The translations under genes and the position numbers were made by a program. A model generated the notes under the pieces. The model made no database searches and was not told the origin of the DNA. It worked only from the letters and a program-made list of their open reading frames with translations. 64,000 nt of DNA from Mustelus asterias (taxonomy: Eukaryota): contig NC_135830.1 of NCBI RefSeq assembly GCF_964213995.1, positions 7,254,001-7,318,000 on the forward strand, in the 5' to 3' direction. The stretch's first letter is position 1, and each line of letters starts with the position of its first letter. This document shows, piece by piece, positions 1,714 to 63,168 of the stretch.

Positions 1714-1783
1714 CTGGAACAGCGATGACTGCAAGTGCAGTGTAGAAAACAGCATATGCAGGACCTCTTGGTGGGGTATGCAT
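1714..1783 (-). CDS. GPR139/GPR142-like orphan GPCR, copy A, coding exon 1 only (exon 2 not seen; presumably left of the window)
   Basis: Minus strand ATG CAT ACC CCA...GTT CCA G|GTAAAG encodes MHTPPRGPAYAVFYTALAVIAVP. It is 70 nt with a phase-1 donor, the same length as and clearly paralogous to exon 1 of copy B (MHAPPRGLIYAIYYTSLAAIAVP). Confidence 0.8.
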
Positions 1784-2144
1784 TTTATGTGAGCAGTCGA
1801 GATGTCCGTTTGAGAATTCTGAAAGCGTTCTGTGCAAAATTCAATGCACCCATTTTCATATGTGTTGCCAATCCCCCAGAGACACACTTAGATTATCTCA
1901 TCGTTGACGTTAACTGCACTAATTGAACAATTTCATTCGGTTACATCACCACTTTTGATATTTACAGTCATTAAACAAATTGATATAATTACATCATCAT
2001 CAATATTAGTTACATTTATGAAGACATTGAGCTCGATCCAAAGGCAATAAAATAATCTATTTCAATAATTATTGCCATTATTTTCTCGTTTTATTGTCCG
2101 TCCAATGGAATGAATAAAATATGTTTTTCTCAACGTTATGGCAA

Positions 2145-2385
2145 AGTTGTATGCCATGTGTGGAGTTTGCAAGTTCTCCCCACATCTGTCGGGGTTTCCT
2201 CCGCGTGCTCCGGTTTCCTCTCATAGTCCGAACGATGTGCTGGTTAGGTGCACTGGTCATGCGAAATTCTTCATCAATGTACCCAAACAGGCACCTGAGT
2301 GTGGTGACTAAGGGATTTTCAGAGAAACTCCATTGCTAATGCAAGCCGACTTGTGAATAATAAATGAACTTCAAACTTTACTTTA
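2145..2385 (+). mobile_element. HE1-like shark SINE (partial)
   Basis: Core 'tgtggagtttgcaagttctcccc...gggtttcctccgcgtgctccggtttcctc' shared with the copies at 43170, 47915 and 52590. Confidence 0.65.
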
Positions 2386-2389
2386 AACC

Positions 2390-3960
2390 GTGATAAATCC
2401 CATCCGGCCCAGCGGACTTGTCTAACGTAATGCAGTTTAGGATTCTCAACATTTCCTCCTTCGATATATTGGCATTCTCGAGAGTGTTCGCACATCTCTC
2501 CCTGACCTCAACATCTATCATGGCCTTCTCAGTGTTGAATACAGACACAAAGTACTTATGAAAGATCTCACCGAATTCATGTGGCTACACACATTACTTC
2601 CCATCACTGTCGATGATATTTTTCATTCAGTTCATGGGACATGGGCGTCGCTGGCTGGCCAGCATTTGTTGCCTATCCCTAATGACCCTTGACAGAGGGC
2701 AATTGAGTGTCAATCACATTGCCATGGTTCCTGAGTCGCATGCAGGCAAGACCAGGTAAAGAAGGCAGACTTCCATCCCTAAAGGATATTCGTGGTCAAG
2801 TTGGATTTTCCCGACAACCGACAATGTTTTCATGGTCATCAGTAAATTTCTTAATTCCAGATTTTTTGTTTATGAATTCAAATTCCGCTATGTGTCCTCA
2901 GTACACTGGCTGAGTTTCTGGATTAATAGTCTAGCAATAATACCACCAGCTATTGTTGCCTCACCGTGGAACTACTCTATTCTTGCTACCCTTTTGCTCA
3001 TCTTACATGCATAAAAACCTTGGGATTCCTCTTGTTCCTATTTGCTAAATACATTTCATGGCCCCGTTAGCCCTCCTGATTCCACGTTTAAGTTCCTTCC
3101 TATTTTCACTATATTCCTCAAGATCAGTTTTTAACTGCCGAGATCTACCGTATGCTTCTTTTTTTCCTGTTAACAAACTTTACAATTTCCCTTGTTATCC
3201 ATGTTACTCGAATCCCTCCACTTCTAACCTTCATTTTTGTGGGCACATTCCTCTTTTGTACCTCAATCATCCATCCTTTAAAAGCGTCCCACATGTGCAG
3301 ACGTGTATTTGCCCTGAAAGAGCCGCTGTCACTCAACATTCCTCAGTTACTGTCTAATTTGGATGTAATTGGTCCTCGGCCAATCAACTAACCTCACCAG
3401 AGGGCCACTCTTGCCTGATTCATGACGACCCGAAGTCTTATTCAATTATGTTCGCTGAGCCCAAAATGCTCCCCCACTGAAACATCCATTACCTGGTCCG
3501 GCTCATTCCCCAATATTTTGGCCGCTCCTTGGTTAGACTATCAACATATTGTGTCAAAAAAGCCCTCTCGGACAGTTTTAACAGATTTCTCTCCATCCGT
3601 GCCGCTGGCTGTAAATGAGTCCCAGTCAATATGAGGGAAGTTGAAGTCACCCACCACAACTACCCTGTTTTTTTTTCAAACGTTTCAAGTATCTGACTAC
3701 ACAACTGCTCCTCTTTCGCCTGTGGTTTGTTGCGATGTCTATAGTACAATCCCAACTTTGTGCTTTCACCCTTTCTATTCCTGAGGTCCAAATATAATGC
3801 TTCATTACAAGATCCCTCCAATGTGTCCACGCTCAATACTACTATGATGTGCTCCCTAATCAGCAATGCAACTTCCCCTCCACTTTCCTTTCCACTTCTT
3901 TCCAGTTCTAAAACAACGATATCCTGGAATGTTAAACTGCTGTCCGTGTCCCTCCTTTGC
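2390..3960 (-). mobile_element. Old CR1/HER1 LINE fragment (endonuclease to linker region) with an internal insertion
   Basis: Minus-strand peptides such as GGEVALLIREHI, LYLDLRNRKGESTKLGLYYR and WITREIVKFVNRKK are homologous to the ORF2 at 28902-31468; many frameshifts. Confidence 0.7.
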
Positions 3961-5776
3961 CGCAATTGCAATAACACCACAACGATTGGCTCGGGTCTGG
4001 AACGCCCCGAAGTGTGATGGAGGCAACTTCATTCGACTCATTCATTGAATATTTGAATAACATTTAACGAAGGAACAGAATGGAGCAAGAAATGATGCAT
4101 GTTTGGAGAGTCACTGCAGACGCGATGGGCTGAATGACGACCTTCTACGTTGTAACTATGCTGTGAACATGCCATTAAACAGAATAGAACCAGAGCACAG
4201 AGAGAATATTCAGTCAATCGATCATGTTTAGTTACTCAGCTGCACTATGTTTTACCTCTATTTTAACTCAAGTGTTCCCAAATGCATTATTACTCTTGCT
4301 TTGCTAGCATGTGGTAATCTATGATTTCAAACGTTTTGTTAATTGAGTGATCTTATTTTGCTTGTGAAATAGTTGCCATTAGACAACATTTTGTCCGGAG
4401 AATCATTTGCAATATGACACTGGCTTGGCCCAGCTCTGAGGTCAGTGTTATATTTTCCTCAAACTCTATGAACCAATTTCGCTCTTTCTAGCAAATCAAA
4501 CTATTTCATCATACATACATAGTACACACAGGCAAACATACGAATTGGGAACAGGAGTAGGCCACTCGTCCCCTTGAGACTGCTGCCCAATTCAAGAAGA
4601 TCCTGGTGAATCAAATTGTAACATCAACAACACATTCTTGCCTACCCCAGTAACCTACCTACAATTTGGTAATCAACAACCTATCTAGCTCTGCCTTGAA
4701 AATATACAAAGTATCTGCACCCGTGAGGAAAATAATTCGGAAACTCACGACCCTCTCAGAGGAAACAACAAATCTTTTCATATCTGCCTTAAATTTGTGG
4801 CCACTTCATTTAAATCAGTGACCGCAAGTTCTCGATTCTCTGACAAGAGGAGACATCCTCCCCACATTAAAGTTGTCAGTGAATCTCAGGATGCCACAGG
4901 TTTCAATAAAGTCGCCTCATTCTCCTGAACACTAATGGATACAAAGATAACATATCCGGCCCTTCCTCAAATGCAGCCCATTCTTTGTAGTTGTCTACTA
5001 AAGATTTTTTTCTGAACTGTGATTAATGCATTGACACCTTCCCTTAATTAAGGTGACTAATACTGTAAACCCGAGGTGCCATTTGAACTTAAAATCTAAT
5101 TGTGTTCTTTTGAGAAATGAACCATAAGGGTGAAACCATAATCAGGCAGTAGATGAGGCTAGCCCGTAGCACTTGAGGTATGCTGACGTCTGCGATCGTG
5201 GTTTGCCTAAGATAGGATTAAGAACCAGGGAAGCCAATACGTTTCATCCTGTGCCTTACCTGATGCAATTTTAAAAAGCTATTTCGGCCGTTTGGCTATG
5301 ATGAACTGATAGATCAAGCCCGGGAGGCGGATCCATCGTGTCAGCATGGATTTTGATTGATTGAACCCAAGATGGGATGCACTGACTTGTCTTGTGAGCT
5401 TGGACTTTGTTTGTCCGCCATGGGTGGTGGCGGGGCAATGACTGGATTTAATTTTGAATTGGCTTTTTTGATTAGAATTAAAAGGCCGAGGGAGGAAAAA
5501 AAGCAGGAGACAGCTTGGTGAAGTAACTCGGGAAATTTTAATTACGAATAAGTTACTACTTATCAAAACCAGGCAGTCCTTTAGGAGTGTACAGTTATTT
5601 TAAATTTCTGGTTCAGCATTGGGCGCAGTTTGGCACTCGGTCTCTGTTTACTCCCCGTTATGTCGGCTTTCCTGTCGTCAGGAGGCTTCGCAAACTACAT
5701 TTTCAAACTTGTTCCACACACTGGTCAAGAAAAGCTGCAGCTTTCTACCCCCAGCCACAAACCACAGAGTAATCAT

Positions 5777-62520: not shown

Positions 62521-62529
62521 TATTTAAAT
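62521..62529 (+). promoter_or_regulatory. TATA-like box of the VH promoter
   Basis: TATTTAAAT about 85-100 bp upstream of the leader ATGs, preceded by GC-rich sequence; no ATGCAAAT octamer seen nearby, consistent with shark IgH promoters. Confidence 0.55.
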
Positions 62530-62606
62530 GCCACTCACGGGACCGGAATCCTACAGTCCGGGAGCTGGTTTGTTCACTGAGTTCCTGACACAACCATTTC
62601 CCTAAA

Positions 62607-62664
62607 ATGACCAGAAAGATGAGGTCGGCGATTTCTCCCAGTTTGTTGCTGACTTTCTTATCCG
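62607..62664 (+). CDS. Ig heavy-chain (IgM-type) leader exon
   Basis: (MTRK)MRSAISPSLLLTFLS G|GTGAGT; a 133-bp intron runs to tacacag| at 62797. Confidence 0.9.
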
Positions 62665-62797
62665 GTGAGTAGTTTTTTATTGTCCAAGTCTCTCACTGTT
62701 ACTGTCTCATTGTTAGTCTATCTCTGGCATGTTCCAGAAACAGGAATCATTTCACCAGGATTAATTCTCGTGTTTTTTTAAATATATATTTACACAG

Positions 62798-63168
62798 GTG
62801 TCCAGTCGGAGGTTATCTTGACTCAGCCAGAAGCAGAGAGCGGGCGTCCCGGTGGCTCCCTGAGACTGACTTGTAAAACCAGCGGCTTCGATCTTGATCG
62901 TTACGTCATGCACTGGATCCGACAGGTTCCCGGACAGGGGCTGGAGTGGTTGGTTCACTACTATTCTCCATCGGATAAACGGTACTCCCCAATCCTTCAG
63001 AGCCGATTTACTGCGTCCAAAGACACTTCAAACAACTTTTTCGCTTTGACAATGAACAATCTGAAGATTGAAGACACCGCCAACTATTACTGTGCAAGAC
63101 ACAGCAGTGGTAGTGATTACCGGGTATCGGCGACTGGGGAAAAGGGACCATGGTGGTGGTGACTGTAG
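62798..63168 (+). pseudogene. Joined IgM-type VH-D(-D)-JH exon, junction out of frame
   Basis: [101 protein letters not shown], a 41-nt Cys-to-Trp junction, then JH (D)[18 protein letters not shown] in another frame. The V frame stops at TGA 63160-63162. No intervening RSS or intersegment DNA. Confidence 0.92.

Follow-up and report, generated by a model that had tools for sequence, protein, structure and literature searches.

Layout of the locus and soundness of the assembly

Why do genes for G protein-coupled receptors (GPCRs) stand among immunoglobulin and T-cell receptor segments in a shark genome? The question is raised by a window of 64,000 nucleotides from Mustelus asterias (contig NC_135830.1, positions 7,254,001 to 7,318,000), which is part of the known shark antigen-receptor complex (IgH miniclusters and TCRalpha/delta). 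Most of the 62-kb order given in the original prediction stands: GPCR-A (minus strand), GPCR-B (plus), a supporting V-delta, two V relics, GPCR-C (plus) and a joined IgM VDJ. The inverted V relic placed between GPCR-C and IgM does not: its best profile match has an E value of 2.3, compared to 2.8 in a reversed-window control, and no V signal was seen in the three matches examined out of the 40 that match this stretch. Two candidates for it, a single short tblastx piece at 49.7–49.8 kb (E 0.006) and a profile match at 50.6 kb, are unsupported.

Such a neighbourhood might also be an assembly chimera, in which a GPCR array was fused to an Ig/TCR region, and the many near-duplicate unplaced contigs of this region in the assembly are in favor of this idea. 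Mis-assembly is unlikely: the 464 kb around the window contain no N, and contig C128 is collinear with the window region from -32 kb to +87 kb. A further contig, C270, is also collinear with the window, and both contigs repeat its gene order. The V-GPCR order is found again in a diverged paralogue at 4.6 Mb of the window's own chromosome, called here C71, and in older ones on C88 and C108, and the scaffold linkage recurs in other species. The chimera is largely refuted, and the probability left to it is very small.

The receptor genes

GPCR-A, GPCR-B and GPCR-C are intact two-exon class A receptors which belong to a large shark-and-ray family. Coding exon 1 of GPCR-A, which encodes the N-terminus and the start of TM1, is on the minus strand at 1714..1783; exon 2, open and with a canonical acceptor, lies just left of the window (about -211 to -1080). 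For the two genes complete in the window, GPCR-B and GPCR-C, the open frames and canonical GT/AG splice sites that had been announced were confirmed. GPCR-B (plus strand) has its coding exon 1 at 13048..13117, with a GT donor at 13118, and its coding exon 2, from the rest of TM1 to the C-terminus, at 18922..19823; the whole protein has 323 residues. Its intron contains on the minus strand a repeated element of 2.3 kb (15907..18201), which is missing in the paralogue at 4.6 Mb and whose open frame of 516 codons resembles a transposase by eye. GPCR-C encodes a protein of 374 residues in two plus-strand exons (36262..36484 and 40984..41885), and its exon 1 falls within a 2.5-kb stretch that is absent from the C128 and C270 copies.

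The three genes share a promoter motif upstream of exon 1 (1905..1929 on the minus strand for GPCR-A, 12905..12929 and 36069..36093 on the plus strand for GPCR-B and GPCR-C), in which an EBF-like element can be recognized by eye. EBF factors are active in B cells and in olfactory neurons alike. The motif is also present upstream of a family copy on C136, a contig with no V match listed.

The family has at least 656 exact motif matches in the genome, against none in a reversed control; the 5,906 candidates of a first look are not a copy number. Dense clusters are found on C4, C5, C8 and C16 (the first 100 matches listed fall on C4, C5 and C8), and C8 has six family genes in 100 kb with no V. 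A tblastn search for V segments found none in the 200 kb sampled around GPCR genes on C4, C5, C8, C16 and C136, and the identical search matched 4 of 20 evenly spaced windows of C71. According to a passage of PMC8455134, elasmobranchs are poor in GPCRs; despite this picture, a single class A family, as yet unstudied, has hundreds of copies in this shark.

Judged from substitution rates, the GPCRs are under purifying selection. The dN/dS ratio is 0.12–0.15 between GPCR-B and four paralogues, 0.28 between GPCR-B and its C128 copy, and 0.30–0.54 for GPCR-C pairs. By region, the A/B clade gives values of 0.07–0.21, with dS near saturation. In the second extracellular loop (ECL2) the ratio, a sum over non-independent pairs, is 1.15 in the C clade compared to 0.14 in the B clade; the former value would fit either immune or sensory diversification.

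A family distant from GPR139

Pfam 7tm_1 matches exon 2 of GPCR-B and of GPCR-C with 64.8 and 77.6 bits (gathering cut-off 30.5). The predicted model of exon 2 has a seven-helix fold (pLDDT 69.9, pTM 0.70) and a TM-score of about 0.7 against peptide receptors. The name "GPR139-like" is right as database naming, but these genes are only distant relatives of GPR139 and do not qualify as orthologues. Human GPR139 (PDB 7VUG, 9M42) is the sole sequence match in the PDB (E 1.6e-8), and the DRF/DRY motif, the TM6 Trp and the TM7 Asn can be aligned. However, the identity in the structural alignment is 21%, the shark has hundreds of copies compared to one GPR139, and the ECL2 cysteine of the shark proteins (WYC) is missing from the aligned GPR139 segment. 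Salamanders, coelacanth and teleosts have relatives that are nearer to the shark family than GPR139 is.

GPR139 is activated by L-Trp or L-Phe and is expressed in the brain. Because of this distant kinship and of the peptide-receptor-like fold, the shark receptors are predicted to sense amino acids or small peptides and to signal via a G protein. As to a linkage of the amphibian relatives to TRA/D, a gene of this kind is not mentioned in passages from PMC12529555 and PMC12698447.

TCR segments and the joined IgM gene

That every antigen-receptor segment is broken holds inside the window, but not outside it: a complete TCRdelta-type minilocus, the nearest TCR D-J-C, was located 112–169 kb left of the window, and C-mu exons continue to its right. 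The supporting V-delta is a leaderless NAR-TCR pseudogene on the plus strand, behind a splice acceptor. Its 5' part (23732..23943) is separated by a LINE-like insertion (23944..25178) from its 3' part (25179..25374), which has two stacked 23-RSSs, the first of them damaged and the second at 25336. The copies on C128, on C270 and at C71:4.6 Mb have the insertion at the same point. Supporting V segments of NAR-TCR are spliced to a NAR V-D-J and are characterized by a CDR1 cysteine; the acceptor and the Cys are both seen here, and the segment is a 77% match to the V that comes second in NAR-TCR gene models, which assigns it to this class. The two relics are an orphan NAR-TCR promoter and leader exon on the minus strand (27100..27259, ATG at 27136), whose V exon is missing, and a frameshifted TCR alpha/delta V on the plus strand (31779..32183, heptamer at 32104), homologous to a V pseudogene on C88. 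Searches for the MHC class II beta and TCRalpha constant families gave no match, but their controls also failed to respond properly.

The IgM gene (plus strand) has a VH leader exon at 62619..62664 and a V-D1-D2-J exon at 62798..63168. A joined exon had been predicted and is present; its V is open and its J is out of frame. The join between D and J, at 63127/63128, corresponds to the VDD-J gene of C128 and C270 minus 390 bp, and with these 390 bp the 12/23 RSS pair between the coding ends is lost, as expected of a germline-joined gene. Such a gene should also appear in bulk DNA at roughly the depth of a single copy. The flanks are 99.7% identical to the unjoined copies. In one sample, possibly the source of the assembly itself, the read depth is 25.2 and 19.1 for the joined form and 22.5 and 22.6 for the unjoined form, compared to about 13–15 and 8–11 for a unique control. 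The IgM VDDJ is an out-of-frame D-to-J join, likely of germline origin. Lee et al. (2000, PMC2193156) described germline-joined shark Ig genes in which, as is the case here, one gene exists both joined and split, and the join is trimmed, with no N additions; the difference is that here a heavy-chain D-to-J step took place onto an already joined VDD. In these near-identical copies, joined and unjoined, what is likely a germline RAG event can be seen with unusual clarity.

Linkage and duplication

Enrichment at antigen-receptor loci is a property of the A/B clade only, and not of the whole family as originally proposed. Among the 132 best matches of a GPCR-B search, 39 are on C71, which makes up 0.56% of the assembly, and 47 others are on contigs with Ig/TCR matches. 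On the contrary, 112 of 131 C-type matches are on contigs with no Ig/TCR match listed. In horn shark, 21 of 26 B-like proteins listed are on the NAR-TCR scaffold, compared to 0 of 59 C-like ones; the corresponding scaffold of whale shark carries 4/4 B-like and 0/10 C-like proteins, and that of zebra shark one B-like protein. Rays have the A/B clade mostly confined to one scaffold each. In the second tree, which took 37 of 53 rows, GPCR-B clusters with the proteins that horn and whale shark have on NAR-TCR scaffolds (SH-aLRT 94); eight sampled loci without an open exon 2 were excluded from the trees. The linkage across species is at the level of shared scaffolds, judged by scaffold length in named records, which does not show interleaving. 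Fisher p-values were set aside, since tandem paralogues do not count as independent.

That the A/B clade is concentrated on C71 and, in horn, whale and zebra shark, on the scaffold with NAR-TCR is the new observation, and no report of a linkage between GPCRs and antigen receptors was found in the literature searched. It gives the clade a fixed address on the chromosome that is viewed as the birthplace of the Ig and TCR genes.

At a finer scale, the proposed co-localisation was not observed: on C71, the distance from V segments to GPCRs is no shorter than chance would give. The median distance to a GPCR is 188 kb for supporting V (9 sites, merged from 12 matches) compared to 193 kb at random (p 0.48), and 173 kb for VH (25 sites, 6 of the 31 VH-like matches having been dropped as adjoining another) compared to 195 kb (p 0.36), in a test that drew on incomplete, B-biased match lists. 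The first 4 Mb of C71 contain 15 of the 43 GPCR copies listed but only 2 of the 31 VH-like matches listed.

The predicted co-duplication beside antigen-receptor segments was borne out by a repeat of about 65 kb and by an older V-GPCR unit. The repeat, at C71:4.587–4.647 Mb, is 87–92% identical to the region and contains four GPCRs along with the supporting V, broken in the same way; the older unit (NAR-V, supporting V, GPCR-C) is on C88 and C108. The duplicates decay: in these copies GPCR-B carries a frameshift, a stop interrupts another GPCR, and exon 1 of GPCR-C is missing.

Resident genes or immune receptors?

The reading we favor, with a probability of about 0.6, is that the GPCRs are long-term resident neighbours which are copied with the immune genes and are not part of the rearranging system. 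The A/B clade would have settled early on the antigen-receptor chromosome. In a region so rich in repeats, unequal crossover and conversion would then have multiplied, inactivated and reshuffled both the receptors and the V segments, in a process of birth and death, and GPCR-C would be a later arrival from a lineage mainly expanded elsewhere. The receptors would act as independently promoted genes whose position is an inherited neighbourhood.

The linkage of the clade is strong and old, and selection for co-regulation could yield the same pattern. The A/B receptors might thus be lymphocyte or leukocyte receptors, for example chemotactic or metabolite-sensing receptors turned on in lymphocyte development, kept in the complex by the chromatin state or the enhancers of Ig and TCR. 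The clade-specific linkage in four sharks, the grouping of GPCR-B with proteins from NAR-TCR scaffolds, the single scaffolds of rays and the strong purifying selection in the A/B clade all agree with this proposal, which is nevertheless clearly the less likely one. Shark karyotypes change slowly, which would preserve any linkage; V segments have no local association with GPCRs on C71, whose first 4 Mb are rich in receptor copies and poor in VH, and the promoter motif is common to a copy on a contig without listed V matches. Moreover, a section of PMC12227049 indicates that the expression of UrIg2, another gene of this complex, is highest in liver and gill and not in lymphocytes. The stronger version, in which an old dedicated clade stayed because lymphocytes express it, possibly clonally, as a third diversified receptor family beside Ig and TCR, is a little more doubtful again. 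Expression in lymphocytes would mean a new receptor family for early adaptive immunity, and sensory expression a new chemosensory family.

It had also been suggested that V(D)J recombination, if it used flanking RSSs elsewhere, would delete or invert GPCR copies, so that lymphocyte clones would differ in their GPCR complements. The geometry would allow this only via V segments that lie beyond the window. One of these, open and on the minus strand at +92.4–92.7 kb, could join the D at -136.8 kb, inverting about 229 kb with five GPCRs, but its nonamer is poor and an inversion leaves genes whole. Similarly, the window could be removed if the V at -84 kb, which is open, on the plus strand and has a good RSS, joined a D/J further right; however, the window is downstream of the nearest D-J-C, neither D nor J was found up to +264 kb, and the distance to the next TCRdelta-type J-C known on that side is 3.7 Mb. 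Loss would also be buffered by other near-identical copies. Clonal rearrangement of the receptors is therefore improbable.

Comparison with known systems

In the antigen-receptor complex (AgRC) described by Flajnik et al. (2025, PMC12227049), a single small chromosome unites IgM miniclusters and NAR-TCR cassettes with IgH-like V segments and with scattered V of TCR alpha/delta. C71 is alike, with 31 VH-like and 12 supporting-V matches listed. The portions of the text and of two supplements consulted there do not mention GPR139 or GPCRs, which are present on C71. Table S1 has one TCRdelta constant entry each for stingray and catshark, compared to at least three separate TCRdelta-type miniloci on C71; this multiplication bears on how T cells hold to one receptor.

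In mammals, olfactory receptors are found among TRAV and trypsinogens within TRB, as a passage of PMC2275272 describes, and the axolotl TRB passage of PMC12529555 also places trypsinogen genes inside TRB. In these loci, as in sharks, a non-rearranging multigene family sits amid V segments and its place is conserved across distant species. The shark guests differ in that they form a non-olfactory class A lineage, span a whole chromosome of 20 Mb and not one end of a locus, and were duplicated together with NAR-TCR cassettes. By this analogy, the best reading is that the GPCRs would be an old resident gene family, comparable to the olfactory receptors in mammalian TRA/D.

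The receptor genes and their family

The Mustelus asterias genome amounts to 3.68 Gb, and the window lies on contig C71 (20.43 Mb). This contig holds 31 of the 150 VH-like matches listed and 12 of the 66 supporting-V-delta matches (the supporting V is the leaderless second V of NAR-TCR), the remainder being chiefly on small unplaced contigs; the setting matches the elasmobranch antigen-receptor complex described in the available part of PMC12227049, for which PSMB5 and UrIg2 serve as additional markers. As originally predicted, GPCR-B (323 aa) and GPCR-C (374 aa) are complete, each with two exons, GT/AG splice sites and an open frame. 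Of GPCR-A, exon 1 lies inside the window and exon 2, which is open, slightly beyond its edge. Further genes of the family 9.6 and 25 kb to the left and 226 kb to the right bring the number to six in 464 kb.

Between GPCR-B and GPCR-C are found a supporting V-delta that a LINE-like insertion interrupts, a NAR-TCR leader in inverted orientation lacking its V, and a TCR V carrying a frameshift. An inverted V relic had also been proposed to the right of GPCR-C; comparison of that stretch did not confirm it. Behind the supporting V, a tandem 61–62-bp repeat (25276–25400) forms stacked copies of a 23-RSS, with far more units on contig C88. A LINE-like element with a 925-codon open frame lies on the minus strand at 28905–31679, and this family was recently active, since nearby copies are 95–97% identical. 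The GPCR-C N-terminus (36262–36370) contains tandem repeats bearing N-X-T sequons, with more units in the C88 paralogue.

Pfam 7tm_1 matches exon 2 of both GPCR-B and GPCR-C. The structure predicted for exon 2 (pLDDT 69.9) is similar to peptide receptors in general, the ten best matches having 17–23% identity. GPR139 is the sole PDB sequence match (E 1.6e-8), and most of the named homologues (best 120 per search), which are shark and ray proteins, are called "probable GPR139". A profile search reaches salamander, coelacanth and teleost proteins whose branches fall outside the elasmobranch expansion. The sequences therefore indicate a separate jawed-vertebrate lineage, expanded in elasmobranchs, and not GPR139 itself. 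These relatives (P0400, P0451, P0407, P0422 and P0433), also labelled GPR139, are possible models for ligand and expression work. A degenerate DRF motif gives 656 genome matches (reversed control, 0), a count which also takes in pseudogenes and duplicate haplotypes and yet underestimates the family, because the motif is present in just 69 of 120 homologues.

Linkage to antigen-receptor loci

The family had been proposed to co-localize with antigen-receptor loci; this is true of a single clade, that of GPCR-A and GPCR-B, but not of the family as a whole. The best GPCR-B matches (n = 132) include 39 on C71, which makes up 0.56% of the assembly, and 47 on other Ig/TCR-bearing contigs, with 46 elsewhere. 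For GPCR-C (n = 131), the corresponding numbers are 4 and 15, and the other 112 are on contigs without a listed Ig/TCR match. The family forms clusters on C4, C5, C8, C16 and other contigs, and no V was found in 200 kb sampled around GPCR genes on C8, C136, C16, C5 and C4. Within C71, 20 evenly spaced 10-kb windows gave V-like matches in four and GPCR matches in two, and the distance from the V segments to the 43 GPCRs listed is no smaller than that from random points (p of 0.36–0.52 for medians, from incomplete lists), which speaks against a functional tie.

In other sharks, linkage was judged from equal scaffold lengths in named records: a scaffold of the length of that of the NAR-TCR genes carries 21 of 26 B-like versus 0 of 59 C-like proteins in the horn shark, 4 of 4 versus 0 of 10 in the whale shark, and one B-like protein in the zebra shark. 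In rays, the A/B clade is mostly on a single scaffold per species. In a quick-search tree, GPCR-B groups with two such shark proteins (SH-aLRT 94) and GPCR-A with stingray proteins (SH-aLRT 95), the enclosing clade having a support of 99; the clade therefore likely predates the shark–ray split.

The predicted co-duplication with antigen-receptor segments is borne out. About 65 kb around the window is repeated at C71:4.587–4.647 Mb (87–92% identity). That copy shows the same break in its supporting V, a frameshift in GPCR-B and a stop in a further GPCR. C88 and C108 carry an older unit, in which NAR V and a supporting V accompany GPCR-C (79% identical). Contigs C128 and C270 align collinearly with the window; identity is about 99% in both flanks and 90–95% in the middle (4000–43500). 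Their GPCR-C is nearer to the 4.6-Mb copy than to that of the window, and they lack 34610–37135 (GPCR-C exon 1 and promoter), a presence/absence variation, while exon 2 is still open. These two features indicate that the mosaic likely arose by conversion or unequal crossover.

TCRdelta-type miniloci and V(D)J recombination

The nearest TCR D-J-C, which had been sought, is a complete plus-strand minilocus 169 to 112 kb to the left (C71:7.085–7.142 Mb), which holds, besides NAR V-D-J and a supporting V, two IgH-like V segments, a single D flanked by 12/23 RSS, five J segments and a constant region. Directly upstream of its NAR-TCR V, an unrearranged IgM V-D1-D2-J with intact RSSs (C71:7061103–7062700, −192.9 to −191.3 kb) is a candidate for IgH-to-TCRdelta trans-rearrangement. 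The window is downstream of this minilocus. The proposed action of V(D)J recombination on the GPCRs is hypothetical: inversion would be possible through an open minus-strand V at +92.5 kb, which has a poor nonamer, and deletion through an intact V at −84 kb would require a D or J further right, of which none was found out to +264 kb.

Similar miniloci, each comprising V, a J set and a constant region, are found at C71:11.018–11.047 and 12.223–12.274 Mb and at C119:0.550–0.577 Mb. The three on C71 (constants at 7.14, 11.04 and 12.27 Mb) are 96–97.5% identical, each with its own J set, and two of them have a D with 12/23 RSS; the C119 copy is 89–91% identical. They are called "delta" on account of the D and the NAR-TCR cassettes. 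The constant exon has 19 matches genome-wide (81–100% identity), some unplaced copies being probably duplicate haplotypes. Table S1 of PMC12227049 lists one TCRdelta constant entry each for stingray and catshark, and our literature search found no earlier report of multiple TCRdelta-type miniloci.

The joined IgM copy

The predicted joined IgM exon is present, in the form V-D1-D2-J and with J out of frame; C-mu 1–4 follow it at 71–76 kb. C128 and C270 share this V-D1-D2 and have it separated from J by an intact 12-RSS, a spacer and a 23-RSS. At the join (63127/63128), the window lacks exactly 390 bp, RSS to RSS (C128:383898–384287, C270:124749–125138). The missing segment takes in the two RSS, the spacer between them and as many as seven bases of J; the breakpoint is ambiguous by two bases, and no bases were added.

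The assembly contains a single joined copy and two that are unjoined. Two sequencing runs of one sample, possibly from the assembly's own individual, gave a depth (which is no copy number) of 25.2 and 19.1 for the joined form and 22.5 and 22.6 for the unjoined, compared to 47 and 40–42 in the common flanks and about 13–15 and 8–11 in a unique control stretch. A somatic junction would be rare in bulk DNA, so these similar depths make a germline RAG event likely, as in the germline joining reported in the available part of PMC2193156. The flanks of joined and unjoined copies are 99.7% identical over 9–13 kb; the join is therefore likely recent, unless conversion homogenized the flanks.

A probable resident family on an immune chromosome

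A 25-bp motif is common to all three window GPCR promoters and is likewise found upstream of copies on C88 and C136 (reversed controls, 0); it has no match at four mismatches in samples of C8, C16, C5 and C4. Pairwise dN/dS is 0.12–0.15 for GPCR-B against four paralogues, 0.28 against its C128 copy, and 0.30–0.54 for GPCR-C. Very recent pairs, with few changes, give higher values (0.71–1.08 for C136 and C27 copies, 0.83 for GPCR-A versus C128). By region, from sums of non-independent pairs, the B clade is constrained throughout (0.07–0.21, dS near saturation), and the C clade has 0.07 in TM3 and 1.15 in ECL2. One C-type subfamily has undergone a very recent mass expansion on C27–C66, C136, C271, C334, C481 and about 80 other contigs (dN/dS 0.7–1.1, few pairs tested).

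We consider it most likely, with a probability of roughly 60%, that the GPCRs are ordinary G-protein-coupled receptors, each with a promoter of its own, residing in a duplication-prone immune chromosome. The original prediction saw them as possibly lymphocyte-linked. Co-regulation in lymphocytes, which would fit the old linkage of the A/B clade, is a less likely alternative. No published description of this family in elasmobranchs, or of its Ig/TCR linkage, was found in the literature covered, which takes in few subscription journals and includes the available parts of PMC12294341, PMC8455134, PMC11979771, PMC12529555, PMC12698447 and PMC2435157. As residents of an immune locus, the window GPCRs would resemble two mammalian gene families, the olfactory receptors in TRA/D and the trypsinogens in TRB, which the available part of PMC2275272 describes as resident there.
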